Of a stretch of DNA of 64,000 nucleotides, positions 8,167 through 37,196 are shown piece after piece. How positions within the stretch are numbered: the first letter of the stretch is position 1; every line of letters starts with the position of its first letter. Under the pieces are notes generated by a model. It was not told where the DNA came from, did not search any database, and saw only the letters and a list, made by a program, of their open reading frames with translations. A program made the position numbers and the translations under genes. Source of the DNA: Chloroflexota bacterium (GTDB taxonomy: Bacteria > Chloroflexota > Anaerolineae > Aggregatilineales > J027); contig JABFGB010000013.1 of assembly GCA_013112715.1 (NCBI GenBank), forward strand, positions 74,599-138,598, read 5' to 3'.

Positions 8167-8178
8167 TGCGTTCTATGA

Positions 8179-9510: not shown

Positions 9511-9596
9511 GTCAAAAAATCCTTTGTAGACTGGGTAAATGATGGTATTCTAACTTTCCGCCGTAAGAGGGTCAAGTTCTACCCGCTCTTCAAATC

Positions 9597-10127: not shown

Positions 10128-10141
10128 TGGTTTGGATAGTC

Positions 10142-10792
10142 CTAATCCGCTTGGAATCCATTCGTTCGATGCGTTTTATCACAAAATGGCTTATTCTTAG
10201 ACCCTCCGCAGCGGCACAGCCATGTCTCGGTTCCCTGAAAAATCACTTCACCATTCGCGTTTAAGATACGAAAATTTCCGGCAACACCAATTGGCCCATT
10301 CTGGTTGAGTGTAATGACCATCCGGGTTTCACCATCCGATAAATCTTTAATCGTGGTAGTTTCGGGCAGGCCGGGATCAGTAAACCCAGCCGCAATATGG
10401 CTGTTATCGCAAAATGGCTTAAATTGAGATGCCCCACACCGACACAGCGCCACCCGTGTATCATTTAAAATGAGGCTGCCATTACTGCTGACCACTTCGA
10501 CGTTGCCCCGCACATGCAGTGGCCCATTTGGTTCAATCGTAATGGTGTTTTCTTGGGGAATGGCTTCGGGTGCGCCACCATCCGTCCGCTGATAATGCAG
10601 TGCTCCGGTTGGACATTGCTCAATCACTGCCGCAAGTTCATCAGCGGTCGCGTGTTGTGGCTGAATCCAAGGCCGCCCTTCACGATTAAAAACTGTTGGA
10701 AGGCCATGTACACATTTTTCGGCATGGATACAGCGCTTTAACTCATATTGTACGGTAATGCCTTGTCCTTGATATTCATGAATTTTAGCCAC
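10142..10792 (-). CDS. Iron-sulfur protein: N-terminal divergent 4Fe-4S mono-cluster region plus two CDGSH-type domains
   Basis: 216 aa. It has two copies of C-x-C-x(8)-C-D-x-(S/T)-H (CRCGASQFKPFCDNSH and CRCGGSKNKPFCDKTH). The N-terminal Cys/His pattern is CIHAEKCVH...CPTGAL. Confidence 0.75.
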   Translation of the reverse strand: MAKIHEYQGQGITVQYELKRCIHAEKCVHGLPTVFNREGRPWIQPQHATADELAAVIEQCPTGALHYQRTDGGAPEAIPQENTITIEPNGPLHVRGNVEVVSSNGSLILNDTRVALCRCGASQFKPFCDNSHIAAGFTDPGLPETTTIKDLSDGETRMVITLNQNGPIGVAGNFRILNANGEVIFQGTETWLCRCGGSKNKPFCDKTHRTNGFQAD

Positions 10793-10831
10793 TTGATTTC
10801 CTCGCCATAAATTACTATTGTTTATTCAGAG

Positions 10832-20671: not shown

Positions 20672-21781
20672 ATGCAAGATGCGCTGGCTTATTTGGCTTC
20701 TCTCAGAACCATTATCCGCGATTTACCGTCCCAAGCAGCGCAGGTGAGCAGTCTGGAACAGTTTATCGAAACTGCTTTCCGGGTTGCTGAGACCGAATGG
20801 CCGTCCTTCACTAGCCACCGTTTGATTTCTCAAACATCCTCCCTATTATCTGCCACTCGCTCGGTTCGCTCCAATGGTGAAATTTGGTCTCTCCCCATTG
20901 GTGGCTATACCCTAGAGCTAACCCTCTCCGGACAGCATCCAGAATCTTTTTGGGAAGCAGGCCAATTATGGGCGCAAATCGTGACCCAACAGTGGCAGCT
21001 TCAACAAACCATTACCAGCCAGACACATACCGACTCGTTTCTAAGTGAGCGCCTCGAACTCTATGAGGGGCTTTCTCAGGTGGCCCAACGAGTTAGTGCC
21101 GAGCTTGCCAGTGAAGCGGTGCTGGTAGCAGCCTGTCAAAGTATTGTCGAGGCGCTTCAGGGGATTGACCATGTGGGGATTGTGATTAACGATCATGCCC
21201 CGGACTATGGCACAGTTTTGGCGGAATATCCCATTACGGGCGCGATTGGACAAAAGATTCAATTGGCGGGGTATGTGGTCTATGAAAAACAAAAAGAAAC
21301 CCTTGCGCCATTTGTCATTGACAATGTGGCCGAGGCGGTTGAGGAATTGGGGCCAAACCGCGAGACTCTCATGGCCTTTGGTATCAAGTCGGTCATGATT
21401 TTGCCACTGTTCGTCCAAAATCAATTTTTGGGTTCACTGGGGTTGGATGCACTGACCCAAGTCCATCATTTTACGGCAGCCGAGATCGAGATTTTGACCG
21501 CAATTGCAGCCCAAATTGCCGTCAGCATCCAAAATGCTCAATTATTTGAAGAAGCCCAGCGTAACGCTCGCTATCAATCTTTTATCAATTCCATCACGGC
21601 CAAATTTCAGGGAATTTCTGATGTCGAAACCATTTTAAGTACATCATTGGCTGAATTAAGCCGTATTTTGGGGGCTGACCGAGGATTCATTCGGATTGTG
21701 CCGTCGGTGGCGGATGAGTCCCTAGAACAGTCTTCGCCCGTCCACATGCCAGCCAATGATGATGAATGGGTAGAAATGTAA
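20672..21781 (+). CDS. Soluble GAF domain protein with no output domain
   Basis: 369 aa. The GAF core ends with the recurring signature SVMILPLFVQNQFLGSLGLDALTQVHHFTAAEIEILTAIAAQIAVSIQNAQLFEEAQ. No kinase, cyclase or HTH domain is present. Confidence 0.75.
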   Translation: MQDALAYLASLRTIIRDLPSQAAQVSSLEQFIETAFRVAETEWPSFTSHRLISQTSSLLSATRSVRSNGEIWSLPIGGYTLELTLSGQHPESFWEAGQLWAQIVTQQWQLQQTITSQTHTDSFLSERLELYEGLSQVAQRVSAELASEAVLVAACQSIVEALQGIDHVGIVINDHAPDYGTVLAEYPITGAIGQKIQLAGYVVYEKQKETLAPFVIDNVAEAVEELGPNRETLMAFGIKSVMILPLFVQNQFLGSLGLDALTQVHHFTAAEIEILTAIAAQIAVSIQNAQLFEEAQRNARYQSFINSITAKFQGISDVETILSTSLAELSRILGADRGFIRIVPSVADESLEQSSPVHMPANDDEWVEM

Positions 21782-23463
21782 TGCGTATAAATTTTATCTC
21801 TAACCTATTTCAAGTCCGATACCCCTACACGTCCCCTGACGACCTGCGCCGTGCCCGCACGATCTTGCTGTTAAGCGTGGTGATCGCTACGTTGCTCACC
21901 GCCACCATTTTGGCTTTGGCCGTCCAAGACCTTACGGGTAATGCAGCCATCCCAACCAGCTATACCTTACTGTTACTGCCCGTTACGGTTGCGATGATTG
22001 GCATCGGGTGGTTGGTGCAAATAGGCCGCTTGGCTGTTGCGGCTTACGCCATGACGTTGGCGATTGCCATTACCTATTTTACGACTTTTGTGCTGGATTA
22101 TCGCGCCGACAGTATCATCATTCTGCTGTTCATTGTGCCTATTCTCACCGCGAGCCTGTTGATTGGTGTCAGGGGGCTGCTGCTGTCAACGTTGTTTTTT
22201 GCAGGCGTGGCGATTACCACCTTGGCCTTTCAGACCAGTTCAAACTCATTTGAATCACCGATTCCCTCGCGTGAATTAGCTACTAATATCGCCACCGTTT
22301 TTTATCCCTCCCTGATACTTGCGGCAGTGTTGATCTATCAATTTCTCGACTATATTGCCGAATTCGTCAAGCGTTATGATAACGTTCAACAGTCAATTGT
22401 CGGCTTGACAAAGGTTAGTGCGGAGCTAAATGAAAAACGTTTAGTCTCGCAATCCCTCCAAGCGGTAGCCGACCTGATGCGCGTCGAACTAAAAGTTGAC
22501 CACGTGTTGATCTACCGTTTGCAGGGCGAAACACCTCGCCTTGTGCTGACTGCCGCGACTGGCCTCAGTGGTCAGCGGTTGCTGCGTGAGAGCTACCGTA
22601 TTGAACTTGATAACCCGAGTGGCCCTGCCCAAGCCTATCGCCGCAAATCGGCGGTGAATCTTAATCGGAATGTGTCTGTACCGCAGCGTGAGGCATTTTT
22701 GCCTTCGACCAACAGTGAATTGGCTTTCCCGCTCCTGACCAGCGACGGTCAATGTATCGGGGTGCTGGATTTGCAGCTTTCGAGTAACGTCATTCCGACG
22801 CAGGGGGAGGTTGAGCTTTATCAGGCAGCGGCGTATCAACTGGCAACGGCTCTACAACGTGAGACATTGGGAACGGATTTGGAGCAACTTCGCCAAGAAA
22901 TGGATGCGGCCAATGTCTCAGCACGGCGCTATCAGGCCGAAGTCAGCCGGATGAGCCAACAAAATGTCGGGATGGCGTGGGGGGCGTACCTATCCTATAG
23001 TGGCCGTCTCACTGCTTTTCAATGGGATAAAGGCACCTTGCGCCGCTGGCAACCTGCGACTACCCCCCTGCCAAATGCTCCTCAGTTAGATCAAACAGGC
23101 AGCGGTCAGCGCATGATGGTCCCGCTGACAGTTGGTTCTCAAACGATTGGGGAAGTTATTTTTGAAAACAGTAGTGAGGGGTGGTCAAGCCAAACCGTCG
23201 AATTTGTCAAAGAAGTGACCAACCGTTTGGCACTGGCCCTCGAAAATATTCGCTTGTTTGATGAAGTCCAGCGGGTGGCGGTGCGTGAACAGCTTGTGAG
23301 TCAGGTCTCGGCAGAATTGCAGGATGCACGTAATCTGGCTCGTTTGGTGAATGTGACCTCACAGGTATTTAATCGTTCGCTTGGTACTGACCAGACGCTT
23401 ATCCGACTGGGTGTACCTACCGAGATTGAAGCACAGCCCGGTGTTGAAATAGAGGTGAATTAA
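21781..23463 (+). CDS. Integral-membrane protein (5-6 TM) with two cytoplasmic GAF domains and no output domain
   Basis: The ORF track gives 21766..23463. The ATG at 21781 forms a TAATG overlap with the upstream stop. The N-terminal region has hydrophobic helices (LLLSVVIATLLTATILALAV and others). Two GAF signatures are present (ELAFPLLTSDGQCIGVLDLQ...AYQLATALQRE and MMVPLTVGSQTIGEVIFEN...TNRLALALENIRLFDEVQ). Confidence 0.75.
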   Translation: MRINFISNLFQVRYPYTSPDDLRRARTILLLSVVIATLLTATILALAVQDLTGNAAIPTSYTLLLLPVTVAMIGIGWLVQIGRLAVAAYAMTLAIAITYFTTFVLDYRADSIIILLFIVPILTASLLIGVRGLLLSTLFFAGVAITTLAFQTSSNSFESPIPSRELATNIATVFYPSLILAAVLIYQFLDYIAEFVKRYDNVQQSIVGLTKVSAELNEKRLVSQSLQAVADLMRVELKVDHVLIYRLQGETPRLVLTAATGLSGQRLLRESYRIELDNPSGPAQAYRRKSAVNLNRNVSVPQREAFLPSTNSELAFPLLTSDGQCIGVLDLQLSSNVIPTQGEVELYQAAAYQLATALQRETLGTDLEQLRQEMDAANVSARRYQAEVSRMSQQNVGMAWGAYLSYSGRLTAFQWDKGTLRRWQPATTPLPNAPQLDQTGSGQRMMVPLTVGSQTIGEVIFENSSEGWSSQTVEFVKEVTNRLALALENIRLFDEVQRVAVREQLVSQVSAELQDARNLARLVNVTSQVFNRSLGTDQTLIRLGVPTEIEAQPGVEIEVN

Positions 23464-23464
23464 C

Positions 23465-25657
23465 GTGGAACGCAATCTGCCCCGTCCTTTTGATTGGCCT
23501 TTGCGGGCGAAATTTGGCCTCGGTTTTCTGCTGACCATTTTGATTCCCTTAATTATTATTGGCATTATTGCTCTGACGTTGCGCTTTCAGGCCCAAACGA
23601 ATCAAGCCGAAGACACCGTTAAAATCATTACCGACACTAAAGTTAATACATTTACCCAGCGGCTTGACGACCTGACAACGACTTCTACCCATGAGGTAAC
23701 ACAGCCATACGATGTTGAACTCTATCAAGCAGCGCTCAACATCAACAGTACCAACCCCTCCGCCATTCAACAAGCGAATCAAACCCTTGACCGTATTTGG
23801 TCGAACAACTTATCGCTTGTGCGTATTCGCTTAATGCACCCCAGCCTGATTACCGTAGCACAGGCAGGTCAAGCGAATATCGAGGTCAATCAGAAGTCGT
23901 TAGAAATTATCAGTCGCAAGATTACCGCTACGACCATCGGCTCAATTTATCCCGGCCCATTCAATGAACCCCTGCTTGATATTATTGTGCCGATTCAGGT
24001 AGATAATCAGCAGATTGGCTATGTGGTGCTGACCCAAAACCTCGACAGCGAGGCGACGGACAATCTACCGAATATCTTGCGCGGCTTTGGCGAACAACCC
24101 GAACTCCAAAATTTGCCTGACGCCAACCTTTTCTTGTTGGATGAGAATGGCCTGTTGCTCGTAACCAGTGAGCGTGGGGTTTTGGTTTTCCAGAATTACC
24201 GTAGGCATCCGGCTTTGTCTGAAAGTAGCGCTCAACTTGACCCCCAACGATATGAAAGTCCCTTGTTACGAGCAGATGTGATTGGTACGTATCAGCGTGT
24301 AGGGGGTACATCGTGGATTCTGGTGACGGAAATGCGTTTTTCCGAAGTGGTCAACCCCCTCGTCAGCACTTATGTTCCTCTAGTAGTGGGTGGGGCGATT
24401 ATGCTACTGCTTGTTCCAAGTGCCGTGTGGTTACTGCTGACCTATCAACAAATTGTCCCGCCGTTGTCCCGCCTAAACCGTATGATGGTCGAATTTGCCC
24501 TAAGTGAACGCAACTCCGATTTCCCGACCCTTAAACGTTCCGATGAAATTGGGCAGGTGCATAATACCTTTGTAGACTTGACCACTGGCTTTCAAAACAG
24601 CGTCTCCGATGCCGAAGCCCGCCAAACGCGGCTATCCAAGCAAGTCGGCCTGTTTACGGATACGGCTAGTTTGCTGCGAACCGTCTCCGAAGCGAATGTT
24701 TTGCTTGAAGAATTTGTGCGCTCGGTGCGCCAACACTATCCTAATGTAGATTATGCCCAAGTATTTCTCATAGACGAGGCCACCAACACTGCTATCATGC
24801 GGGTTGGCACAGGTGAACAGGGTCGCCGCCTATTCGTACAGGGTTATCGTGTTGGATTGGATAATCAGACCCCAATCGGACATGCCGCTGTGTTAGGCCG
24901 TCCGGTTTTGGTTGTGGATTATGAAAAAGCACCAGCCTATACCAAGCATGAGATTTTTAGGCACACCCGCACCGAACTGGCCGTACCTATGTTTGCACGC
25001 GACCAACTAATCGGCATCTTAGATTTGCACAGCGTTGCGCCAGAGGCGTTTTCGGAACGGGACTTTACCTTTTTCTTGGCGTTGAACACCGAGCTTGCCA
25101 CTGGCTTATTTGGCCTGTTAGTCGGCGAGTTATCCTTAAATGGCGCGAATGGTGATAGTCAGAGTCTACAAGTGGCACGTGAAGGGTGGCAGGCATATTT
25201 CACGCAGCATCACGACCTTGCCTACAGCACCGGTGGACAACCCGCCGCGTTAAAAGATTGGACGTTTTTGCAAAAGCAGGCCATCCAACGCCGCAAACCC
25301 GTAACAGCCAAAGTAACCGAAAATCAGATCGCTTTTGCCTTACCAGTCGTTTTACGTGGTGAGGTGATCGGTGCGATTGAATGTACTGTTGAGGTAGCCC
25401 AATTTAATCAAGGGATGCTGCAAACGGCGGAAGAATTGGTGGAGCGGTTTGCAATTGCGGCGGAAAATGCGCGGTTGTTTGAACAAAGTCAGCAGTTGAT
25501 TGAACGCGAACGTCTGCTCAATGAGATTTCGCAAAAACTGAGCGTTCAAACCGATTTTCGACAGATTTTGCAGGTGGCGGTCAAGGAGTTGGGCCTTGCA
25601 CTCGGTACGCCAGAAACCACCATTTCGTTAAACATTGACCCATTGACCGCCCAATAA
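23465..25657 (+). CDS. Membrane sensor: TM, extracytoplasmic Cache-like domain, TM, HAMP, two GAF domains; no kinase or other output
   Basis: 730 aa. The GTG lies 1 nt after the upstream stop. TM1 is FGLGFLLTILIPLIIIGIIALTL. The extracellular region ends TSWILVTEMRFSEV, paralogous to VWTVIVSMEASEV in the giant kinase. TM2 and a HAMP-like segment follow, then GAF signatures (ELAVPMFARDQLIGILDLHS...; FALPVVLRGEVIGAIEC...AIAAENARLFEQSQ). Confidence 0.75.
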   Translation: MERNLPRPFDWPLRAKFGLGFLLTILIPLIIIGIIALTLRFQAQTNQAEDTVKIITDTKVNTFTQRLDDLTTTSTHEVTQPYDVELYQAALNINSTNPSAIQQANQTLDRIWSNNLSLVRIRLMHPSLITVAQAGQANIEVNQKSLEIISRKITATTIGSIYPGPFNEPLLDIIVPIQVDNQQIGYVVLTQNLDSEATDNLPNILRGFGEQPELQNLPDANLFLLDENGLLLVTSERGVLVFQNYRRHPALSESSAQLDPQRYESPLLRADVIGTYQRVGGTSWILVTEMRFSEVVNPLVSTYVPLVVGGAIMLLLVPSAVWLLLTYQQIVPPLSRLNRMMVEFALSERNSDFPTLKRSDEIGQVHNTFVDLTTGFQNSVSDAEARQTRLSKQVGLFTDTASLLRTVSEANVLLEEFVRSVRQHYPNVDYAQVFLIDEATNTAIMRVGTGEQGRRLFVQGYRVGLDNQTPIGHAAVLGRPVLVVDYEKAPAYTKHEIFRHTRTELAVPMFARDQLIGILDLHSVAPEAFSERDFTFFLALNTELATGLFGLLVGELSLNGANGDSQSLQVAREGWQAYFTQHHDLAYSTGGQPAALKDWTFLQKQAIQRRKPVTAKVTENQIAFALPVVLRGEVIGAIECTVEVAQFNQGMLQTAEELVERFAIAAENARLFEQSQQLIERERLLNEISQKLSVQTDFRQILQVAVKELGLALGTPETTISLNIDPLTAQ

Positions 25658-25686: not shown

Positions 25687-28600
25687 ATGCAAGACCAAAA
25701 AATTCAGCCACATTCTAGTTCTGGGCCATTTCGTTGGTTCATTAACCGTCCCTTCCGCACACAACTGCTGACGATTATTGCGGCCTTTGTGGTGATGTCT
25801 TTCTTGGTATTGATTGCTGTCACTATCCAGATCAACAACGTCGTGCGCAACAACGTCAAAGACGACTTGAGCGAACATGCGGATGAAAACGGTGAGCAGT
25901 TGAGCGTCCCGTTTGAAATCGTAGCCGCCGACTTTGATAACCTTGCTACCAACTATATTACCCCTAGCATTGTGGATGTGCTTGACCGCCGCAGCACTAG
26001 CGGCGAGGTAGACAATCTCGCACGCGAATCGGTCACACGGAGATTCGACGAACTACTCATCGGGCGGCCCCTCTATCACGCGATTCGATTGGTCGGCACC
26101 AGTGGGCGTGAATTGGTGGCTGTCGAGCGTTCTGGACGGACAGGCAACATCGAGATTGTGTCAATCGCCGATCTCAGAAATCGCCGCAGCGAAGAATTTG
26201 TCCAGTCGGGCCTGCAATTGCGCCGCACAGGACAGTTCTGGATTTCGGATGTGGTGTTGGTGCGGGACGCCACTGGCCGTCCGACAGAACCCTTCCAGCA
26301 GATTATGACGCTGACCACGCCTATCCTTGACGAAACAAATAACGTAATCGCCCTTCTCGCCATAGATATGGATATAGATTGGCTTGTTCGGGGCATTACT
26401 GAACGTGAGAGCAGTGATGAAATTATTCATGTGGTAGATGAAGATGGTTATTATATTGCGGCCTCGGAGCAAGATTTACTCTATGGCCGCTCGACCGCGG
26501 TTGGTGAACAGCTAACGGGTTCACTGGCAAATACCCTGCTAACCGACCTCCCTCAAGAAGCCATTGAGTATCGCCAAAACAACACCGATTATTTAGCGGC
26601 CACTTCCATTATTCGACCCTTGTCCAGCCTATCAGATACGACCAGTCAGCCAGTATGGACGGTGATCGTGTCTATGGAAGCCAGTGAAGTCGCTGGCCCA
26701 ACACGCTTGGTACTGGGGACGTTCGCGTTCATATTTCTCGGCTTGCTGAGTGTCACAGGTATCTTATTGTGGTATGAGGCCACCCAGATTTCTCGCCGTT
26801 TTGAAGCTATTGGAGATGGCTTGGCACGGGTCAATCGAGGCGACTTGGCTGTCCGTCTCTCTGTTGCCGAAACCAACGAATTTGGTCGAGTTGCCACCTT
26901 GTTTAATGATGTCACCAAGCGCACCCAAACGTTGGTTGGTGAACTTCAGGCAAGGGTGCAAGCTCGTATTCGTGACCTTGACCTTGTCGCGGAAATCAGC
27001 CGCGAAATTACCGGGTTGCGTGACCAAAGCCTTGTTTTGAATCGCACTATTAACCGCATTGTTGAACAATTTGACTACTACCACTCCCAAGTTTTCTTAA
27101 TTGATGATCTGGGTGAATATGCTGTCTTAGTCGCCAGTACGGGTGAGGCAGGACAGCGCCTCCTTGCCAAAAAACATAAGTTGGCGGTTGGATCAAATTC
27201 CGTGATTGGCCGCGTGACCGCGCTTGGTGTTACGGTCATCGCAGGCGATACGACCTCCACTGAAGTCCCTTGGCAGCCCAATGTGGAATTGCCTAATACC
27301 CGTTCAGAAATGGCCCTGCCCCTCAAGGTTGAAGATCGGGTGATCGGTGCGTTGGATATTCAAAGTATTCGTCCCGAAGCCTACAGCCCGGAAGATATTG
27401 AAATCTTCCAAGTGTTAGCTGATCAATTGGCGATTGCGATCAACAATGCCCGCCTGATTGAAGAACTCGAACAGCGGGTGGATGAAGTTGCCTTGCTCAA
27501 TCAGCGCTTAACCGAAAAAGCATGGGAAGAATTTGCCCGTATCCAACCCGATGAAGTGCAGTTGGGCTATCAATATGACCTGATTGGTGTCAAGCCGATT
27601 CAACCGGATACACCAGAAAACGGCAATCTGCTGTCGCCGCCGCGTGACGAGCACTCCGTATACAGCACCCAAATTTCAGTAGGTGGTAAACCGATTGGAC
27701 AAATCGAGACCAAAGCGCCGCAACGTGCCCAATTGAGCAAAGATGAACAGGCCTTGATTGATGCGGTTGCGGTACGTGTGGCTCTCGCGGTAGACAATGC
27801 CCGCTTGTTCCAGCAAACCCAGATGGCGCTCGGAGAATCGCAGCGTCTCTATGAAATGGCCCGTACCGTCAGTAGTGCCGCCGAACTCAATATTGAAGCC
27901 GTTTATGCCCTTATCACGGAGCAGTTAAGCTATTATGAAAATCTGGATAGTCTAGCGATTTTGTTAGCTGATCCTTTCCCGTCGCACCTAGCGCCCAATG
28001 TTATTGTTGCCCATCTGTGGTCACGGATTGGCAGTATCTCCACTTGGGAGACTGGTCAACGTGTGCCTTTATTACAACAGGGTCTTTCGGCTCAATTCGA
28101 GCTTGCCCCCCGTAGCCCGATGCTCATTCATGCCCATGAATTGAACGATCTTGAGGGCAGCGACCAAATTTTGGGCTACCTGCTCAGGACGTTGAATGCC
28201 GACACGCTCTATCTTATGCCGTTGGTGACAGGTGCAAAATGGTTTGGTGTCTTGGTGTGCAGCAGTCAAACGCCACGCGCCTTTACCGAAAATTATATGA
28301 GTTTTACCTCAGCTGTCGGTGACCAATTGGCAATCGCGGTTGAAAACCGTCGTCTCCTCGAAGAAGTCCAAAAAGAAGCACGGCGAGCATTGGCATTGGC
28401 CGACGCAGGTCAGTTGGCGAGTCGTATCAGCACGGATTTTGAGTCTGACGTAAACCGCCTGTTCCGGGCAGTATCTGACCCCGGCGATTTTGACCGCTGG
28501 TGGTTTGGGGTGTTGGATACGGATGGGCAATCGCTCCGTCAAGTGGCAGCTTTTTCACCCCAAGAATCAGGTGACAGCCCCTTTATGCCGCAACGCATGA

Positions 28601-31600
28601 ACCTGAAGCGTGACCGTAATGCCATTACCGAATCCGTGCTAATTCGCCAAGTCGTTTTGGTCAATGAACGGGTTCATCCGACGTTTGGCAAACTTTCCGC
28701 CCAAGAACATATCGTGTATGGCAAGCATCTAGCTGTTCCCGTCATGACCAGCAACGAAGTGGTAATCGGGGCGCTCTTGATTGGTCGTCGTGCGTCACAG
28801 CATGATTTGGATGAACGCGATATTCAGTTGGCGACCACACTTGCCAGTCAGCTTGCTATTGCTACCGAAAATCAGCGCCTCTTTGCGGCGATTGAAAATC
28901 AACGCCAGACGCTGCAATCCACGCTTGAAGCGATGCCCGCCGGGGTGTTGTTGTTAGCCCCACGTGGCAACAGCCTGCTTTCCAATCAACGCGCCGTTGA
29001 TCTTTTTGGCGGTGGAGTCAATAAAGCTCTGTTTTCATCCAACACCTTCCCGATTTACAAGCTGGGCACAGATGAGCTTTACCCATCTGAAGAATTCCCC
29101 ACCACCATCGCCTTGCGTGAAGGGGCCATCGTCAGTGCGGAAAATATCTCGGTGGAATACCCGGATGGTCGTCGGGTGGACTTGCTCGCTAACGTCGCGC
29201 CGATTCGCAATGAGAGCGGCGAGATTTCCTCGGTGGTGGCGGTTTTCCAAGAAATTACTGAACTGCGCGAACTCGAAAAAGCATTGCAAGACAGCCTAAG
29301 CGAAACTACCGCGCTGTATGAGGCTAATCGTCAAATTACCTCCGCCACCAGCGTCAATGACCTCGCCAATGTGCTGGTCAATCAACTGCTGACCTTGATG
29401 CCCAATCAGGTCTATGTGGTTTTGCAGGAGGGTATGGATCGAGGGCCGCTGCAAACCCGTGTGGTGGCGGCATGGCCGGAAAGTTATGCGGGGGTCACTG
29501 ATGTCGATTTGCTGGCTCTGCCACGTAATTTGTTAATGAGCGAAGAGCCAATTATTGTTTCCAACATTGATCAGAGTATCGGTTTTCTTGACCAAACCCT
29601 TGAATTTAATATGCGCTTGCAGGCCATTCAAAGCGGTATCCAGTCGTTTGCTTCGATTCCGCTGCGGGCCAGAGGTCGTACTCTCGGTTGGTTCGCGGTG
29701 GTCTATTTCGATAAACATTCCTTTATGGCCGAAGATCGGCGCTTTATGACGGCCCTTGCTGACCAGACGGCCCTCGCATTGGACAGTATTTTCCTATTCC
29801 AAAGTACCCAAGATGCCCTGCGTGCGGTTGCCAATCTCTATCGCAGCAGTCGTCGTATTGCTGAAGCCCGCGATCTTGAGGAAATGCTGGATACTATCCG
29901 CACAGAACTGTTGAATTTCAATCCCGACCGGGTGGATGTTTTGTTGCAACGCACACAAGAAGACATTGCCTCGTTCTATTTTGGTTTAGAATGGAGTAAA
30001 GACCCCGTATTTGCTGAAATACCCAGTCTGCCCCTTGTGCCAAAAACAGGCGAACCAATTGGCGATTTCGACCCGATGACTCGTGATGAATATTACATCC
30101 AGTCTATTGATGACGAATCCGAAGCGACGATGAATCAGATCGTCCGTCAATTGCGGGCCATCCAAACCCCCTATCAGTCTATTCTAAGTGTGCCGCTGTC
30201 TGTCGGGGGTCGTGTTGTGGGGCGTATTTCGATGGGCTTCCGCGAAGTTCACATTTTCACCCCGGATGAATACCAATTCATCACTACATTGGCCGATGCG
30301 GCAGCCTATTTGGTTGAAAATGACCTGTTGTTCAGGCAGACGCAGGAATCATTGGAAGAAACGGGCGTCCTCTATCAAGCCAGCCGTGCCATTGCCAATG
30401 CCGAAAGTCGTGATGAAATTGTGCAGGCCGTGATTGACTATGCTGCTGATGCCCTCGTAGACAAAGTATTTCTGCTTGGTTTGCGTTCCGAAGATTGGAA
30501 CAGCGAAAACGCCGAACTCGAGATCGCTACGTCATGGGGCCGCGACCAATTAGTGGACTTGCAGGGACTACGGTTTACGCGCAACCAACTGCCCTTCTGG
30601 AATGACCTCGCAACCATCAGGATGAAGTGGGTGGATGATGTCACCCGCGATCCCGCGATCTCAACCGATGCCCGCTTGGGTTATAAGGCCTTGCGTATCA
30701 GTTCATTTGTGATTGTACCCTTACGCACCCCCACCCGCTTAATCGGCGCGATTTTGTTGGCCTCCGCCGAGACCCGCGAGCATCAAGAACGCGAAATCCG
30801 CATTTATCAATCATTGGCTGACTTAGCTGCTGTGCAGTTGGAAAACAAGCGCCTCTTTGAACAGACCGAACTGCGTGCCCGTCAATTAACGACCTCTGCA
30901 CAGGTGAGCCGTGCTGCGACGTCTATTTTGAATTTGGACGAACTGTTCCCGCGCGTCGTAGACCTCATCCGTGAAGCCTTCCAATATGACCATGTCCAGA
31001 TTTTCATGATAGATGCAACGGGACAGAATGCCGTCCTACGCGCTTCAACAGGTGAGGCAGGTCAAAAATTGTTGAGCCTGAACCACAGCCTACCCGTTGG
31101 GTCACGTTCCGTCATTGGACAGACCACCAGCCGGGGTATGCCCGTATTGGTAGCGGATACGGCGCTCAGTGAAACCCATCGCCCCAATCCCCACCTGCCC
31201 GATACACGATCTGAAATCGCCTTCCCCCTGATTGTGAAGGGTCGCGTTGTGGGGGCTTTGGACGTACAGTCGAATCAAGCAGGACTATTTACTGAGGACG
31301 ACGTACAGGCCTTGACCACAATGGCCGACCAATTAGCTGTTGCCATTGATAACGCTCAGTTATTTGAAATCTCCCAACAGCGTGCCGCTGAAATGGCCTT
31401 CTTGTTTGATGTCACGACCTTCGCCGCCGCCATGCCTAACCTTTCGGTGATGTTAGAAACGGTCAGTCAGGTCTTGGCAAATCGTATGGATGCGAGTAGT
31501 GTAGTCTTTTTCCTCAATGAGGTTGGACGCAATCGTTTAGCGGCCCAAGCAATGGTGATTGCCGTCCAAGAGGGTGATTCGCAGACCCTGCATTCGATTG

Positions 31601-33093
31601 AACCCACTGTCAAAGTTGCTATTGGTGAAGGTCTAGCGGGGCAAGTTGCCGAAACCCGCACCCCCATTATCGTGCCGAATTTTGAACTTGGCCCCTACAC
31701 CCCAATGGACGTTTCGGCCCGTTCAGCGATTTACCTCCCAATGACCAGTGGTGAAACTTTGATTGGGGTCATGGGCTTGGAGGGTCAGCGTGAGGCGCAG
31801 TTTGGTGAAGACACCCTGCGACTGCTACAAGCGCTCAGTACGGCGGTCTCGGCGGTTATTCAAAGCACCTTGTTGGTCGAGGAATTGCAGCGCACCAACG
31901 AGCGCCTGCGTGAAATTGATCAACTTAAGACCAATTTCCTTGCCGCCATGAGCCACGAACTCCGCACCCCGCTGAATTCAATTATCGGCTTTTCCAGTGT
32001 CATTTTGAAGGGTATTGACGGCCCGATTAATGACATGCAAAAGCAAGACATCCAGATTATCCATTCCAGTGGTAAGCATCTGCTCGGTTTGGTAAATGAT
32101 ATCCTCGACCAAGCCAAGATCGAAGCGGGCAAGATGGAACTTTCGCTGGATTACTTCGAACTGGCTCCCGTCATCAAGGGGGTGATGTCCAGCGCTATTG
32201 GCTTGACCCGCGATAAGAACATTCGTCTGCATACCGAGATTGAAGAGTCTATTGATAAGGCGTTTGGTGATGAGTTCCGCACCCGCCAAATCTTATTCAA
32301 TCTGATTTCTAATGCGGCCAAATTTACCGAACAAGGGAGTATTACCCTGAGCGCCTTTATCGAAAAAGACGTTGAACCGCCCATGATTACCGTTGCAGTA
32401 CGGGATACCGGAATCGGGATTCCACAGGAATATCTCAATACGATCTTTGAGGCGTTCCAACAAATTGACAACTCTACCACTCGTTCCGCCGAGGGTACCG
32501 GTTTGGGATTGCCGCTGTCCCGGTCGTTGGCCGAACTACAGGGTGGACGGCTATGGGTGGAAAGCCAAGAAGGGGTCGGCTCTACCTTCTATGTCACTAT
32601 CCCCTTAGAGCCGCCACCTCCGTCGGCAGCAGAAATCGCTGAAGAAGAGATGTCCGATACCCGAGAATTCGGCACCGACTTCAATAATTTGGTAGATGAA
32701 ATCAAAGCTGAACGTCTGCCCTCTCGTCAGAAGGTCATTTTGGCAATTGATGACGAATTGGGCATGATTAATCTCTATCGTCGTTATCTCACCAAAGAAG
32801 GTTGGCAGGTCATTGGCCTCACCAACCCTGAAGAAGCGGAAGAAATGGTCGCCAATCATAACCCCATGATGATTTTGCTCGACATCAATATGCCCAATCG
32901 GGATGGTTGGCAGGTATTGGAAAGACTGAAAGACAATGACCAGACCTATCATATTCCGGTGATTGTATGCAGTATCAGTACCGATACCCAACGCAGTTAT
33001 CGGCTTGGGGCGACCAGCCATTTGGTCAAACCATTTGTCGAAACCGATCTTATCAAGGCCGTCCGAGAAACTGAGGCGAATTTAGCATCGTGA
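25687..33093 (+). CDS. Giant hybrid sensor histidine kinase: TM, Cache-like domain, TM, HAMP, about nine GAF domains interrupted by one PAS, HisKA, HATPase_c, receiver
   Basis: 2468 aa, with an AAGAGG SD. The recurring GAF C-terminal signature (..ALPL....G.LD.QS....F...D...L..LA.Q.A.AI.NARLFEE) occurs about 9 times. The PAS region is LQSTLEAMPAGVLLLAPRGNSLLSNQRA. The H-box is FLAAMSHELRTPLNSI (His2090, nt 31954-31956). The N, G1 and G2 boxes are FNLISNAAKFT, VRDTGIGI and GTGLGLPLS. The receiver motif is MILLDINMP (Asp2399, nt 32881-32883). Confidence 0.9.
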   Translation: MQDQKIQPHSSSGPFRWFINRPFRTQLLTIIAAFVVMSFLVLIAVTIQINNVVRNNVKDDLSEHADENGEQLSVPFEIVAADFDNLATNYITPSIVDVLDRRSTSGEVDNLARESVTRRFDELLIGRPLYHAIRLVGTSGRELVAVERSGRTGNIEIVSIADLRNRRSEEFVQSGLQLRRTGQFWISDVVLVRDATGRPTEPFQQIMTLTTPILDETNNVIALLAIDMDIDWLVRGITERESSDEIIHVVDEDGYYIAASEQDLLYGRSTAVGEQLTGSLANTLLTDLPQEAIEYRQNNTDYLAATSIIRPLSSLSDTTSQPVWTVIVSMEASEVAGPTRLVLGTFAFIFLGLLSVTGILLWYEATQISRRFEAIGDGLARVNRGDLAVRLSVAETNEFGRVATLFNDVTKRTQTLVGELQARVQARIRDLDLVAEISREITGLRDQSLVLNRTINRIVEQFDYYHSQVFLIDDLGEYAVLVASTGEAGQRLLAKKHKLAVGSNSVIGRVTALGVTVIAGDTTSTEVPWQPNVELPNTRSEMALPLKVEDRVIGALDIQSIRPEAYSPEDIEIFQVLADQLAIAINNARLIEELEQRVDEVALLNQRLTEKAWEEFARIQPDEVQLGYQYDLIGVKPIQPDTPENGNLLSPPRDEHSVYSTQISVGGKPIGQIETKAPQRAQLSKDEQALIDAVAVRVALAVDNARLFQQTQMALGESQRLYEMARTVSSAAELNIEAVYALITEQLSYYENLDSLAILLADPFPSHLAPNVIVAHLWSRIGSISTWETGQRVPLLQQGLSAQFELAPRSPMLIHAHELNDLEGSDQILGYLLRTLNADTLYLMPLVTGAKWFGVLVCSSQTPRAFTENYMSFTSAVGDQLAIAVENRRLLEEVQKEARRALALADAGQLASRISTDFESDVNRLFRAVSDPGDFDRWWFGVLDTDGQSLRQVAAFSPQESGDSPFMPQRMNLKRDRNAITESVLIRQVVLVNERVHPTFGKLSAQEHIVYGKHLAVPVMTSNEVVIGALLIGRRASQHDLDERDIQLATTLASQLAIATENQRLFAAIENQRQTLQSTLEAMPAGVLLLAPRGNSLLSNQRAVDLFGGGVNKALFSSNTFPIYKLGTDELYPSEEFPTTIALREGAIVSAENISVEYPDGRRVDLLANVAPIRNESGEISSVVAVFQEITELRELEKALQDSLSETTALYEANRQITSATSVNDLANVLVNQLLTLMPNQVYVVLQEGMDRGPLQTRVVAAWPESYAGVTDVDLLALPRNLLMSEEPIIVSNIDQSIGFLDQTLEFNMRLQAIQSGIQSFASIPLRARGRTLGWFAVVYFDKHSFMAEDRRFMTALADQTALALDSIFLFQSTQDALRAVANLYRSSRRIAEARDLEEMLDTIRTELLNFNPDRVDVLLQRTQEDIASFYFGLEWSKDPVFAEIPSLPLVPKTGEPIGDFDPMTRDEYYIQSIDDESEATMNQIVRQLRAIQTPYQSILSVPLSVGGRVVGRISMGFREVHIFTPDEYQFITTLADAAAYLVENDLLFRQTQESLEETGVLYQASRAIANAESRDEIVQAVIDYAADALVDKVFLLGLRSEDWNSENAELEIATSWGRDQLVDLQGLRFTRNQLPFWNDLATIRMKWVDDVTRDPAISTDARLGYKALRISSFVIVPLRTPTRLIGAILLASAETREHQEREIRIYQSLADLAAVQLENKRLFEQTELRARQLTTSAQVSRAATSILNLDELFPRVVDLIREAFQYDHVQIFMIDATGQNAVLRASTGEAGQKLLSLNHSLPVGSRSVIGQTTSRGMPVLVADTALSETHRPNPHLPDTRSEIAFPLIVKGRVVGALDVQSNQAGLFTEDDVQALTTMADQLAVAIDNAQLFEISQQRAAEMAFLFDVTTFAAAMPNLSVMLETVSQVLANRMDASSVVFFLNEVGRNRLAAQAMVIAVQEGDSQTLHSIEPTVKVAIGEGLAGQVAETRTPIIVPNFELGPYTPMDVSARSAIYLPMTSGETLIGVMGLEGQREAQFGEDTLRLLQALSTAVSAVIQSTLLVEELQRTNERLREIDQLKTNFLAAMSHELRTPLNSIIGFSSVILKGIDGPINDMQKQDIQIIHSSGKHLLGLVNDILDQAKIEAGKMELSLDYFELAPVIKGVMSSAIGLTRDKNIRLHTEIEESIDKAFGDEFRTRQILFNLISNAAKFTEQGSITLSAFIEKDVEPPMITVAVRDTGIGIPQEYLNTIFEAFQQIDNSTTRSAEGTGLGLPLSRSLAELQGGRLWVESQEGVGSTFYVTIPLEPPPPSAAEIAEEEMSDTREFGTDFNNLVDEIKAERLPSRQKVILAIDDELGMINLYRRYLTKEGWQVIGLTNPEEAEEMVANHNPMMILLDINMPNRDGWQVLERLKDNDQTYHIPVIVCSISTDTQRSYRLGATSHLVKPFVETDLIKAVRETEANLAS

Positions 33094-34757
33094 CCGTAGA
33101 TCAACTTTCTTCGACACAGGTGAAACCGATTCACCTAGAATGTAAAAACTGTGGCTGGCACAGCGTCTATGAACGCCCGCTAAAACGCTGCCCGACCTGT
33201 GGTGACGATATTCTCTATGCCCGTTATGATTTGGAAGCGCTGCGCCGTGACAACTGGGGCGAAAAAATCATCAACCGTAAGCGCGGCATGTGGCGGTATC
33301 ACGAATTGCTGCCGATCAAACACACTGAAAACATCGTCTCGCTTGGCGAAGGCGATACTCCCCTCATTCATGCCAAAAACGTCGGTGCGATGCTGGGGTT
33401 GAAATATCTCTATATCAAAGACGAGCGTCAAGGCCCGACCAATTCCTTTAAAGACCGCCAAGCCTCGGTTGCAATTTCCGCGATGGCTGAATTGGGTATT
33501 CAAGAGGCAGTCGTCGCCAGCACGGGGAACGTCGCCATTGCTTATTCCGCTTATGCTGCTCGTGCCGCGATCAAACTTTGGGCCTTTTTCCCTAACCTCG
33601 TACCTAGTGATAAAATTCGAGAGGTAGCCTTGTACGGCACGGAAGTAGTCAATGTGACGGGCACCTATGACCAAACCAAAGAAATCGCCGTCCGTTTTGC
33701 CCAAAGTCAAGGCATTCATTACGATCAAGGTATCAAAAATATCGCCGCGATGGAGAGCATGAAAACCATCGCCTATGAAATCGCTGAGGAATTAGGGTGG
33801 CGTGCCCCGGATTGGTTTATTCAACCCGTCAGCGGCGGCATGGGACCAATCGGTGCTGCGAAGGGCTTTGAAGAATTGCTAGAGCTTGGTTTGGTAGATA
33901 AGGTGCCTTCGCTAGGGATTATCCAATCTACCGGATGTGCCCCGATGGTAGATGCTTTTAACAATGGGATGTCGGTGGCCGTGCCCGTTGAAAACCCTGA
34001 AACGGTCATTGCGACCCTGAGCACTGGCAACCCCGGACGGGCCTATCAACTACTGTATGAATTGATGCAGCAGTATGGGGGGGCCGCCGAAAGTGCCACC
34101 GACGAGGAAGCCTTTGAAGCCACTCGCATTTTGGCGCGGAATGATGGTATTTCGGTTGAACCAGCCACTGCCGTCGGTTTTGCTGGATTAATCAAATTAG
34201 TGCGGCGCGGGGTCATCAAACCCAACGACGTGGTGGTGTTTAACTGTACGGGCCACACCTTCCCGGTGGAGAAGGAAATCTTGGGCGAGCGGTGGGCCAA
34301 ACAGGTGGATATTTCGAACGCCAGTCGTACTCCATCACTGCCGACGGATCGTCTCCTAACCGAGGTCGGCAAGGTCAGCACATCCAATGCGCGGCGTGTG
34401 TTGGTAATTGAAGATAATGAAGATTCGGCCCGTTTGATTCGACGAATTTTAGAGGGCGGGGCAGGCCATGAAGTCACCATTGCCCAAAATGGACGTGAAG
34501 GGCTTGAAATCGCCATGCAAGAAAAGCCCGATCTGATTGTGACGGATTTGATGATGCCGGAAATGGATGGCTTTCAGGTGGTTGAGCGTTTAAAGGCCGC
34601 CCCTGAATTACGTGATATTCCGGTGATTGTACTCAGCGCCAAAGAATTGACCCCCGTCGAACGCAGCCGCCTTGCGGGACAGGTGGAATCATTTTTGCAA
34701 AAGGGGTCATTCCTAAACGAGGAATTATTGCAACGAATTATTGACAGCCTAAATTAG
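33090..34757 (+). CDS. Threonine synthase-like fold-type II PLP enzyme fused to a C-terminal response-regulator receiver domain
   Basis: 555 aa. The GTG start overlaps the kinase stop (GTGA). Catalytic-part evidence is the zinc ribbon CKNCGW...CPTCGD, the PLP-lysine motif TNSFKDRQ (Lys121, nt 33450-33452), STGNVAIAYSAYAA, the glycine loop PVSGGMGPIG and CTGHTF. The receiver covers aa ~435-555: VLVIEDNED, LIVTDLMMP (Asp486, nt 34545-34547), VIVLSAK and FLQKGS. Confidence 0.85.
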   Translation: MTVDQLSSTQVKPIHLECKNCGWHSVYERPLKRCPTCGDDILYARYDLEALRRDNWGEKIINRKRGMWRYHELLPIKHTENIVSLGEGDTPLIHAKNVGAMLGLKYLYIKDERQGPTNSFKDRQASVAISAMAELGIQEAVVASTGNVAIAYSAYAARAAIKLWAFFPNLVPSDKIREVALYGTEVVNVTGTYDQTKEIAVRFAQSQGIHYDQGIKNIAAMESMKTIAYEIAEELGWRAPDWFIQPVSGGMGPIGAAKGFEELLELGLVDKVPSLGIIQSTGCAPMVDAFNNGMSVAVPVENPETVIATLSTGNPGRAYQLLYELMQQYGGAAESATDEEAFEATRILARNDGISVEPATAVGFAGLIKLVRRGVIKPNDVVVFNCTGHTFPVEKEILGERWAKQVDISNASRTPSLPTDRLLTEVGKVSTSNARRVLVIEDNEDSARLIRRILEGGAGHEVTIAQNGREGLEIAMQEKPDLIVTDLMMPEMDGFQVVERLKAAPELRDIPVIVLSAKELTPVERSRLAGQVESFLQKGSFLNEELLQRIIDSLN

Positions 34758-34778: not shown

Positions 34779-36065
34779 ATGACACTATCGCCTGCTCCAA
34801 AGCCGAAGAAAATTCTCTATATCGAGGACAACCCCTCGAATGCGACGTTGGTGAAGCGTATTTTGCAGCCCAAAGGCTACACCATCATTATCGCTGAGAC
34901 CGGGTTAAAGGGCATTGATGCGGCATTGGAGCACAAACCCGACCTCATTTTAATGGACATCAATTTGCCGGATATGAGTGGACGTGAGGTGACAACTCGC
35001 CTCCGCGCTTTTGAACAGTTCCGCGACATGCCCATTGTGGCCCTGACTGCCCAAACCGACGACAAGCAGCGGGCCATGACGCTTATTTCCGGTGTATCTG
35101 GTTTCATGGCGAAACCCATTGATGTGGCCTCTTTCCCCAAGCGTATCGCCTTTTATTTGGAAGGGGGCAAAGATTTACCCAAAGTTGCCAATCCCGAAGA
35201 GGCCCGCCGCAATTATCACAAAGAACTGACCGAACATCTTGAAAAACGCCTGCGTGACCTAGAAGCGGCCAATTCCAAGCTGCGTCAACTGGATGTCATC
35301 AAAGACGACTTTATCAAACGCACCGCGCATGAACTTCGCACTCCGCTCACCATCATTTATGGCTATGGACGTTTATTGCAGACCGCGCCACCTATTCAGC
35401 TATTAACACAGTCCAGCCCTGAAATTGGGGCCTATGTGGATGCTTTGGTCGAGTCCGTCGAGCGCCTGCATGATGTCATCAATGAAATCTTTACCGTTTA
35501 CCGCTTGACCACCGGACAAATTGAATTGAATCTAGCCCAATCAAATTTGGGTGAGATTGTCCAATATGCACTGGATGACTTTAAGCAAGCCGCTCAACAG
35601 CGCAATGTGAATGTCGAATTTACCCGCGACGGGTGGCCTACCAAACTGATGGTGGATTTTGAACTCTTGCGCTTGGCGCTGGCAAATGTCATCGGTAATG
35701 CTATTAAGTTCACCCCCGACGGTGGCAAGGTCTCTATCAATCATGTCGAAACCCCTGAAATGGTCAAAATCACTGTCCACGACTCGGGTATTGGGATTCC
35801 AGTTGAAGAACAGCACCGTATCTTTGAAAGTTTCTATTCCTTTGAAAAAACCGAGCACCATTCCACCAGCAAAACCGCCTTTCGTGGGGGTGGGTTGGGG
35901 CTAGGGCTATCCATTTGTAAAAGTATCATCGAGGCACATGGAGGTAAAATCCACGTCGAAAGTCAGGGGCAAGACGTTGAAAAAATGCCCGGTAGTACCT
36001 TTCATATCGAAATTCCGCTCACCAATCGCGTGCCCGTCCCAGTGGATGTGACTCCCGCACCATAA
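34779..36065 (+). CDS. Response regulator / histidine kinase hybrid (N-terminal REC, HisKA, HATPase_c)
   Basis: 428 aa. The receiver has ILYIEDN, LILMDINLP, IVALTAQ and MAKP. The H-box is FIKRTAHELRTPLTII. The ATPase boxes are GNAIKFTPDGG, VHDSGIGIP and GGLGLGLSICKSIIEAHGG. Confidence 0.9.
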   Translation: MTLSPAPKPKKILYIEDNPSNATLVKRILQPKGYTIIIAETGLKGIDAALEHKPDLILMDINLPDMSGREVTTRLRAFEQFRDMPIVALTAQTDDKQRAMTLISGVSGFMAKPIDVASFPKRIAFYLEGGKDLPKVANPEEARRNYHKELTEHLEKRLRDLEAANSKLRQLDVIKDDFIKRTAHELRTPLTIIYGYGRLLQTAPPIQLLTQSSPEIGAYVDALVESVERLHDVINEIFTVYRLTTGQIELNLAQSNLGEIVQYALDDFKQAAQQRNVNVEFTRDGWPTKLMVDFELLRLALANVIGNAIKFTPDGGKVSINHVETPEMVKITVHDSGIGIPVEEQHRIFESFYSFEKTEHHSTSKTAFRGGGLGLGLSICKSIIEAHGGKIHVESQGQDVEKMPGSTFHIEIPLTNRVPVPVDVTPAP

Positions 36066-36073
36066 GGAGTCAT

Positions 36074-36147
36074 GTGAAGCAAAGATGGTTTGAAAAACGG
36101 TCTGGACTGAATGAATTTGAAACGGTTTGAAAAGCAGTCTGGACTGA
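36074..36147 (+). repeat. Diverged 37-nt tandem duplication of the transporter gene's 5' end; the first copy forms an 18-codon out-of-frame mini-ORF (36074..36130)
   Basis: Unit 1 (36074-36110) is GTGAAGCAAAGATGGTTTGAAAAACGGTCTGGACTGA. Unit 2 (36111-36147) is ATGAATTTGAAACGGTTTGAAAAGCAGTCTGGACTGA. They match at 28 of 37 positions, and at 22 of the last 24. Unit 1 encodes MKQRWFEKRSGL and unit 2 encodes MNLKRFEKQSGL. Only unit 1 is preceded by a strong SD (AAGGAG, 36064-36069). Confidence 0.7.
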
Positions 36148-37196
36148 TCGCCGCCCTTTTTACCCCCATTTTCTTGGGGATGAATCCGGTATTTGGCAAA
36201 ATAGCCCTGCATAATGGCGCTGATCCCTTTACTGTCGCAGCCGTCCGCACGGTGTTGGCGGCGGTGTTGCTGTGGTTGGTGTACCGCCTTTTTGCTAGGC
36301 AATATCTTTATATCTATCCCCTCGGTTTGTTGAACTGCATCGCTATAGGCTCGGTCAATGGCATCGGCTCGTTAATGTATTACAACGGCCTGTCGCTGTT
36401 GAACGCTTCAATGGCCCAATTAATCAACGCCCTCTATCTGGTCTTTGTGATGATTTTGACCCGAATCAGCGGTCAGCAGCTAAGTTGGCGTATCATATTG
36501 CGCACTGGGATCGCCATGCTGGGCATTTTGTTGATTGCCGGTGGTGTAGCGGGTAAAACCAACTGGCTTGGTATTGGCCTCATGATGGGTAATGCCCTCT
36601 TATTTGCGGGGACGGTGGTTATGAGCCAGCGTGCCCTCTACGACATGCCTGCCCAAACCGTCGCTTTTTATGTTCTGACGACAATGGCAGTAGTCGTTGC
36701 GGTGGCCCGTTTAGCCTACAATTTACCCCTCTTCCCCGATGCCCCTACCAGCGGCGATATTGAAGCATGGTGGGCGATTTTAGGCCTTGCCGCCACAACA
36801 GCCCTCTCCCGTCTGACAATGTTTATAGGAGTCAAGGGTTTGGGTAGCGTCCGCACTACCCTGTTGGTGATTTTGGAGATGGCGGTCTCAATTTCATTAT
36901 CGTTCATTTTTTTGGGCGAACGGTTCACGACTATTCAATGGTGGGGCGCGGCGATTTTGTTAGCCAGCATTTTGTTACCTACCGGGCATATCACCCCGGA
37001 TGTCAGTCCTACTGAGTATCTCCCCCGCCTAGTACGTGTGCGGCTCTATCGGGTGGCCTTTAATCATGTGTTTAACCCCCGCAACAGCAAAATCTCGACG
37101 CAAGAAGTTCGCAAACTTCAAGAACTCATCGCCAAAGATAAATTCGCCACCCAAGATTTGCGCATTATTGACGACCTCACCAATCCCGACGACTAG
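36111..37196 (+). CDS. DMT superfamily (EamA-type) transporter with a C-terminal cytoplasmic extension
   Basis: 361 aa with about 10 TM helices in two EamA-like halves (PVFGKIALHNGADPFTVAAVR...; ALSRLTMFIGVKGLGSVRTTLLVILEMAVSISLSFIFLGERF). The hydrophilic tail is about 70 aa. The start context is unusual (see the repeat feature). Confidence 0.75.
   Translation: MNLKRFEKQSGLIAALFTPIFLGMNPVFGKIALHNGADPFTVAAVRTVLAAVLLWLVYRLFARQYLYIYPLGLLNCIAIGSVNGIGSLMYYNGLSLLNASMAQLINALYLVFVMILTRISGQQLSWRIILRTGIAMLGILLIAGGVAGKTNWLGIGLMMGNALLFAGTVVMSQRALYDMPAQTVAFYVLTTMAVVVAVARLAYNLPLFPDAPTSGDIEAWWAILGLAATTALSRLTMFIGVKGLGSVRTTLLVILEMAVSISLSFIFLGERFTTIQWWGAAILLASILLPTGHITPDVSPTEYLPRLVRVRLYRVAFNHVFNPRNSKISTQEVRKLQELIAKDKFATQDLRIIDDLTNPDD

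Follow-up and report, generated by a model that had tools for sequence, protein, structure and literature searches.

Almost all characterised outputs of two-component systems act on transcription, second messengers, chemotaxis or protein phosphorylation. In CheB, PleD (GGDEF), RpfG (HD-GYP) and PorX (PglZ) a receiver is joined to an enzyme and the gene lies beside that of a histidine kinase; PorX in particular is a characterised case in which the enzyme is of an unusual kind (PMC9757075). Fusions of receivers to standard metabolic enzymes have been noted before (Galperin et al. 2018, PMC5847659). Here we describe a gene of the same logic, coding for an enzyme that resembles threonine synthase (ThrC), depends on pyridoxal phosphate (PLP) and ends in a receiver domain. 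It lies in a 64,000-nucleotide stretch of DNA, hereafter the window, from a Chloroflexota bacterium (assembly GCA_013112715.1, contig JABFGB010000013.1, positions 74,599 to 138,598 of the forward strand; GTDB lineage Bacteria; Chloroflexota; Anaerolineae; Aggregatilineales; J027), and all positions below are window coordinates. We lean slightly towards the view that the protein is a response regulator with a ThrC-family PLP enzyme as its output, and that an adjacent EamA transporter moves the substrate or the product.

The fusion protein departs from CheB, PleD, RpfG and PorX in that its output is PLP-dependent and ThrC-like, its receiver is C-terminal rather than N-terminal, and its gene cassette includes a conserved EamA gene. 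Another PLP-dependent amino-acid enzyme with a response-regulator-like domain is Rv2531c, an amino-acid decarboxylase of Mycobacterium tuberculosis in which, according to excerpts of PMC12329521, the receiver-like domain repositions between oligomeric states. As those excerpts present it, Rv2531c differs in PLP fold and in chemistry, its receiver-like domain is internal or N-terminal and is described structurally, and neither a partner kinase nor phosphorylation is mentioned in them. An earlier reading of this DNA, made from the letters and a list of open reading frames (ORFs) without database searches (the sequence-only reading), held that a PLP enzyme as response-regulator output lies outside the characterised classes. 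That output is indeed undescribed in the literature we searched, but the principle is known (PMC5847659); what is new is the enzyme class and the cassette, not the fusion of a receiver to an enzyme.

Several described proteins resemble the fusion protein on the side of the enzyme. Arabidopsis threonine synthase (2C2B) and IlvA (1TDJ), both found among its structural neighbours, are likewise PLP enzymes of fold type II with an appended regulatory element. Plant threonine synthase is activated by S-adenosylmethionine, and IlvA is a threonine deaminase with a C-terminal regulatory domain (isoleucine/valine); both are regulated by metabolite binding, whereas the fusion protein carries a phosphorylatable receiver and has a dedicated kinase. 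The canonical threonine synthases of known structure (2ZSJ, 1UIM/1V7C, 2D1F, 6CGQ/6NMX and 1E5X) share with it PLP fold type II, the SFKDR lysine, the S-T-G-N loop and the TGH motif; it differs from them by an N-terminal zinc ribbon, the C-terminal receiver and three replaced motifs, and the neighbours of its gene encode a kinase and a transporter instead of enzymes of the threonine pathway. Other ThrC-fold enzymes have departed from canonical threonine synthesis, namely cysteate synthase (TIGR03844; CapA2, 9K3C) and a "unique ThrC lineage" of Microcystis to which threonine synthase/deaminase activity is ascribed (PMC12172450). Unlike the fusion protein these are not receiver-fused, but the existence of such paralogues means that the annotation "threonine synthase" does not fix the chemistry.

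The fusion gene and its relatives

The gene occupies positions 33090 to 34757 of the forward strand, as judged by ORF analysis, Pfam, alignments and a structure model, and reads from a GTG start to a TAA stop in a single unbroken frame of 555 codons. The start overlaps the stop codon of a gene for a 2468-amino-acid (aa) kinase by 4 nt (atcGTGAcc), with a GAGG about 13 nt upstream. A further kinase gene, of REC-HisKA-HATPase architecture by Pfam, begins 21 nt past the stop and is followed by the EamA transporter gene. The sequence-only reading had described the uninterrupted frame, the GTGA overlap and the receiver-kinase gene 21 nt downstream in these same terms.

Profile searches identified both of the proposed domains. 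The catalytic domain (PALP, PLP fold type II) spans aa 83-388 (33336..34253, forward strand; Pfam E value 9.5e-68) and matches the full length of the profile (1-295 of 295). The receiver spans aa 437-550 (34398..34739, forward strand; Pfam Response_reg, E value 3.9e-21), covers 110 of the 111 profile positions and is modelled as five beta-alpha units, (beta-alpha)5. Ahead of the catalytic domain lies a zinc ribbon, C18-x2-C21...C34-x2-C37 (33141..33200, forward strand), whose four cysteines are invariant in an alignment of 49 sequences; in a larger set of 133 sequences C34 and C37 never vary, while C18 and C21 occur in 128 rows and fall in a gap in the remaining five. The putative Schiff-base lysine K121 (33450-33452, forward strand) is invariant, and its SFKDR motif aligns with SFKDR of the solved threonine synthases 2zsj, 1uim, 2d1f and 6cgq and with SFKDL of 1e5x. 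SGGMGPIG similarly aligns with their GNAGN PLP-phosphate loop, and CTGHTF with LTGHGL, so that all the enzyme motifs initially quoted from the letters are present and placed against solved enzymes. Little or no variation occurs among the 133 family members at K121, S144-T145-(G146)-N147, the glycine loop or G388-H389-T390. The receiver has the acidic pair E441/D442, the phospho-acceptor D486 (34545-34547, forward strand), S516 and K538; D442, D486 and K538 are invariant in the 133 sequences and position 516 is always T or S. The receiver motifs had also been recognised from the letters, with one correction: the conserved lysine is that of QKGS and not that of SAK. The conservation of the catalytic and receiver residues speaks for an enzyme that works and a receiver that can be phosphorylated.

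Between the two domains lies a linker (34266..34391, forward strand; aa ~393-434) that is poorly conserved by column and in part of low model confidence (pLDDT below 50 at aa 393-418). If a sequencing or assembly error had merged a thrC gene with a receiver gene, it would hide here, which is all that could be put forward for such an artefact; we found nothing else in its favour. Gene calls on 17 contigs gave the identical 555-aa product, and three of these places came from separate sequencing runs and had the same neighbours. PF00291 and PF00072 occur together in all of the 120 best protein clusters (90%-identity clusters, at 62-94% identity, 529-590 aa). Enzyme and receiver share one reading frame throughout 95 loci (one in the window, 13 from species genomes, 4 from look-ups and 77 from metagenome contigs) and more than 240 protein clusters, at 46-94% identity. 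An artefactual merger is thereby ruled out for practical purposes, both at the junction in this assembly and as an account of the gene; the earlier description of a genuine fusion stands, and the fusion is evidently old and under selection.

Two aberrant calls were noted. In a metagenome-assembled genome (MAG) of Candidatus Villigracilis vicinus (L014, ~10001-12047) the fused gene is split into short ORFs, which could reflect a pseudogene or the indel errors of a long-read assembly. A 492-aa protein (P0137) joins the C-terminus of a HATPase_c kinase to a ThrC-like domain; this call probably arose by read-through or a frameshift at the tight junction between kinase and enzyme, and it illustrates how close the two genes lie.

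Named members of the family are nearly all from Chloroflexota MAGs (Anaerolineae, Anaerolineales, Aggregatilineales, Phototrophicales, Thermoflexales, Anaerolinea and Bellilinea spp.). Our scan of species genomes, which was dominated by the receiver pattern MMPEMDGF, gave 14 loci with a fused-type match (L001-L014, the last fragmented). At least 120 clusters have the ~555-aa architecture, and clustering at 50% reduces the full-length fused representatives to a handful. The closest zinc-ribbon proteins that lack the fusion share 42-46% identity; when an alignment of these unfused proteins was used to fish for metagenome contigs, 77 of the 80 loci recovered were receiver-fused, which indicates that the subfamily is almost exclusively a fusion. 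A search seeded with P0187, the nearest zinc-ribbon protein with canonical motifs, returned Thermoplasmata archaea only. By its sequence relationships the enzyme belongs to a distinct, almost always receiver-fused subfamily of a zinc-ribbon ThrC-like radiation.

A sister architecture with two receivers (ThrC-REC-REC, ~690-720 aa) accounts for at least 120 further clusters from the same taxa (Anaerolineae and Aggregatilineales). Examples are the proteins P0121 and P0122 and the genes at 7965-10043 of locus L097 and 7974-10121 of locus L150, which lie downstream of giant kinases. NCBI names these ~710-aa relatives only "pyridoxal-phosphate dependent enzyme". Matching of NCBI accession neighbourhoods revealed no contig or assembly shared between the ThrC-REC and ThrC-REC-REC families.

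Relation to threonine synthase

We compared the enzyme domain with five solved threonine synthases (Aquifex, Thermus, M. tuberculosis, B. subtilis and Arabidopsis). These are its nearest solved relatives by sequence (E values 6e-52 to 2e-33 over all five), with identities of ~32-36% to the bacterial enzymes by TBLASTN, and threonine synthases are also the nearest solved folds (Foldseek TM 0.75-0.78 normalised to the target; mean pLDDT of the model 76.8). Such kinship, together with the invariant catalytic core, favours one alternative to our reading: a housekeeping threonine synthase, converting O-phosphohomoserine to threonine, that has acquired an allosteric receiver, with EamA as an RhtA-type threonine/homoserine exporter. 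Threonine synthesis would then be tied to a signal from growth or from the environment. Identity between the window and locus L081 is higher for the enzyme domain (81%) than for ribosomal protein S2 (68%), as expected of an essential enzyme, and this too speaks for a housekeeping role.

The loop motifs point the other way. In a motif census of the query and 133 relatives against the five solved enzymes, three motifs were found to be replaced. S-T-G-[ND]-T of the solved enzymes is S-T-G-N-V in the family, where it is invariant. N-S-x-N-[PS]-x-R-x-E-G-Q-K-T is D212-x-G214-x-[KR]216-[STN]217...E222-[SA]-M-K-T226; in the window this family-specific loop reads D212-Q-G-I-K216-N...E222-S-M-K-T226 (33723..33767, forward strand, by alignment) in place of NSxNPxRxEGQKT. 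Its columns D212, G214, E222, M224 and K225 are invariant and position 216 is K or R. The third motif, G-N-[AL]-G-N, has become S-G-G-M-G-P-x-G, and the corresponding PLP-phosphate glycine loop in the window is S248-G-G-M-G-P-I-G255 (33831..33854, forward strand; canonically GNAGN). Other zinc-ribbon representatives (P0169, P0187 and P0212) retain the canonical motifs, so the zinc ribbon is not the cause of the replacement. In the Thermus enzyme the residues Thr88, Asn154, Ser155 and Arg160, contributed by STGNT and NSxNPxRxEGQKT, reportedly hold the phosphate of O-phosphohomoserine, an assignment credited to Omi et al. in 2003. An alternative anion or phosphate site could be provided here by the conserved K/R216 and S/T217, and a phosphate site rebuilt in this way would suit a housekeeping enzyme.

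Curated family models were also compared. The protein passes the cut-off of the thrC equivalog model TIGR00260 (185.9 against 167.1), which again favours a threonine synthase; the pass is marginal, though, when P0187, with its canonical loop, and P0156, from another threonine-synthase-like clade, score 317-336, and a fused relative (P0124) falls below the cut-off at 165.8. Against NF006050 (PRK08197) it scores 300.7 bits, below the cut-off of 303, as do P0124 (251.8) and P0131 (299); true members reach 591 (P0181) and 549 (P0243), and membership was rejected. Assignment as a cysteate synthase (TIGR03844) was likewise rejected, at 122.7 bits against a cut-off of 324.9. By its motifs, then, the catalytic domain falls outside the canonical threonine synthases, and it is peripheral in the curated models. 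The sequence-only reading had called it an apparently complete ThrC-type catalytic unit, which is right for the PLP-binding core and wrong for the canonical loop motifs; its caution that the substrate is open was well placed, since the motifs of all the solved threonine synthases are replaced.

Gene context bears on the same alternative. No hom, thrB or second ThrC-like gene was found within 8-10 kb in 99 loci, a result that is uninformative for the rest of the genome, and TBLASTN searches of the 1.4+ Mb of retrieved loci with Thermus and Aquifex ThrC returned fused genes only. The lack of a nearby second threonine synthase would agree with the fused gene being the housekeeping one; the conserved partners, on the other hand, are a sensor kinase and a transporter and not hom or thrB. 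ThrC-REC and ThrC-REC-REC proteins, moreover, occur in the same orders and cannot both be the single housekeeping form. Taking both sides together, we regard a housekeeping threonine synthase with an acquired receiver as rather unlikely.

Kinase and transporter neighbours

The gene upstream of the fusion (25687..33093, forward strand, by Pfam) encodes a giant hybrid histidine kinase of 2468 aa with dCache, 7-8 GAF, PAS, HisKA, HATPase_c and C-terminal REC domains; Pfam revealed no Hpt domain in it. Upstream kinases across the loci are large, combine multiple GAF/PAS domains and are often hybrid; in some relatives, such as L006, the kinase is non-hybrid. For these comparisons we used loci with enough flanking sequence (65 upstream, 63 downstream). 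In 59 of the 65 a HisKA-HATPase core sharing 44-74% identity with the one in the window's kinase ends no more than 1.5 kb upstream. We claim kinase adjacency from this and not orthology, because an orthology criterion of at least 40% identity was unspecific, matching 60 times in control loci that were picked via receiver similarity and are rich in kinases. The downstream REC-HisKA-HATPase kinase (428 aa; 34779..36065, forward strand, by Pfam) is an optional member of the cassette, lying directly downstream in 22 of the 63 loci, including L083, L013 and L106.

The next gene (36111..37196, forward strand) encodes a 361-aa EamA/DMT transporter with two repeats (Pfam EamA, E value 1.3e-27) and is a conserved member of the cassette. 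An EamA gene lies no more than 4 kb downstream in 51 of the 63 loci, co-directional in 40 and convergent in 11; at the same thresholds the 65 control loci (1.01 Mb) held none. A link between enzyme and transporter, put forward from the letters as speculation, thus gains support from synteny. NCBIfam gave only a weak, generic match for the transporter. That the enzyme is embedded in a phosphorelay was also claimed from the letters; we found the two-component cassette conserved over ~50% sequence divergence, and phosphotransfer itself is what we infer from it.

Further upstream, a co-directional run of sensory genes leads up to the giant kinase. It begins with a 369-aa GAF-domain protein (20672..21781, forward strand; Pfam GAF, E value 3e-15) and continues with a 565-aa GAF-domain protein (21766..23463, forward strand; Pfam GAF/GAF_3), in whose position L081 has a 548-aa GAF protein. 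The third is a 730-aa dCache and GAF protein (23465..25657, forward strand; Pfam GAF_2, 8e-15, with a partial dCache_1 match); its ~185 C-terminal residues had no Pfam or NCBIfam match and thus no recognisable output domain. Related proteins precede the kinase in L081 (33% identity over 699 aa) and in L003 (dCache-HAMP-GAF).

Inspection of the cassette genes (those examined) brought up neither a DNA-binding regulator nor any other output domain, which leaves the PLP enzyme as the only evident output. Many cassettes also contain receiver-only proteins and the REC-kinase, and these fit a different account, in which the main task of the ThrC-like domain is to sense a ligand and the receiver serves as a relay or phosphate sink. 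Amino-acid binding would then tune how the receiver gains or loses phosphate and feed metabolic state into the kinase network, the real outputs lying elsewhere, for example in the single-domain receivers. The C-terminal position of the receiver, as in hybrid kinases and CheV-type sinks, would suit such a role. So would the related zinc-ribbon ThrC-like proteins that end in a LeuA allosteric/dimerisation domain (P0202 and P0254, ~615 aa) or a PadR DNA-binding domain (P0242 and P0263, ~495 aa), which show that the ThrC-like fold has repeatedly been wired to regulatory modules. These ThrC-LeuA_dimer and ThrC-PadR proteins have the same type of N-terminal enzyme and a C-terminal regulatory module, but that module binds amino acids or DNA, and they belong to other clades with other loop motifs. 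PLP-fold sensor domains are known in the MocR/GabR regulators; here the resemblance is in logic only, since Pfam found no helix-turn-helix in the fusion protein, which does not have the MocR/GabR-type architecture, and the PadR fusions are confined to other clades of the radiation. The full catalytic set is invariant over hundreds of sequences, beyond what ligand binding needs, even if GabR also keeps its lysine. The conserved transporter neighbour, too, fits a metabolite-handling enzyme better, and no alternative output domain turned up in the cassette genes inspected. We therefore consider a primarily sensory role improbable.

Other features of the window were recorded in passing. A second kinase pair, consisting of a hybrid PAS-GAF kinase (58411-61092, forward strand) and an overlapping REC-HisKA-HATPase kinase (61076-62215, forward strand), has the two-kinase layout seen at the ThrC-REC gene without an enzyme between. 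On the reverse strand, positions 49703-55039 encode a DNA polymerase III alpha of 1778 aa (PHP, DNA_pol3_alpha, finger, HHH_6 and OB domains) that is split by an intein with a LAGLIDADG homing endonuclease at ~aa 798-1204. A 433-aa protein with DUF4231 and SLATT_1 (40593-41894, reverse strand) follows the rpsB-tsf-pyrH block; SLATT is a 2TM effector domain associated with SMODS/SLOG conflict systems. A Peripla_BP_6 periplasmic-binding-protein domain is fused to a Fasciclin domain at 1562-3286 (reverse strand).

A proposed signal-gated ThrC-like enzyme

A response regulator with a ThrC-family output might operate as follows. The multi-GAF sensor kinase, taken here as co-transcribed with the fusion gene, would phosphorylate Asp486, as would the REC-HisKA-HATPase kinase where present. 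The phosphorylated receiver, carried on a flexible linker of ~40 residues, would alter the activity of the N-terminal PLP enzyme in one direction or the other, most plausibly because receiver dimerisation or docking changes its dimer or its open/closed state. The probable reaction is a beta/gamma elimination or replacement, similar to that of threonine synthase, on an amino acid whose leaving group is anionic; O-phosphohomoserine is the default candidate substrate, and the adjacent EamA transporter would bring the substrate in or take the product out. An environmental signal would in this way probably turn an amino-acid reaction directly on or off.

Several points weigh against this proposal. 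The receiver sits C-terminal of the enzyme, a position atypical of receivers that control an output and typical of the phospho-sink or relay receivers of hybrid kinases and CheV. The giant kinase, being a hybrid, carries a receiver itself, and Pfam revealed no Hpt domain in it, which leaves the route of phosphotransfer unclear, although non-hybrid kinases occur in some relatives (L006). The structure model has a pTM of 0.65 and gives no reliable inter-domain geometry, four of the five models having a pLDDT of ~62; with no trustworthy inter-domain contact we derived no interface mechanism from it. The status of the enzyme as a specialised paralogue would follow from motifs and gene context. Full-text literature searches, finally, returned no description of a ThrC-receiver fusion or its cassette, and no report of phospho-regulation of any PLP enzyme of fold type II.

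If the proposal is correct, it would add to two-component outputs a post-translational, signal-gated control of a metabolic step, exerted through a PLP enzyme coupled to a transporter. The proteins would form an uncharacterised, widespread and lineage-restricted class of enzymatic response regulators. The family is large, with hundreds of clusters in two architectures, mainly from Chloroflexota of the Anaerolineae type, a group found in abundance in sludge, sediments and hot springs. Its members are uniformly mis- or under-annotated as "threonine synthase" or "PLP-dependent enzyme", and metabolic reconstructions may credit threonine synthesis to a gene with another role. The system should be tractable experimentally, as a soluble enzyme whose switch is a single Asp and whose kinase partner is obvious.

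A further, tentative possibility is that the domain is not a threonine synthase, and that the kinase commands the making or destroying of a distinct amino-acid-derived molecule which EamA exports or imports. We hold this to be somewhat doubtful. Were it true, the output of this two-component system would be the production and release of a metabolite, and the replaced substrate loops would represent a new reaction specificity in the ThrC fold. In the filamentous Anaerolineae such a metabolite could serve as an intercellular signal or a cross-feeding compound.

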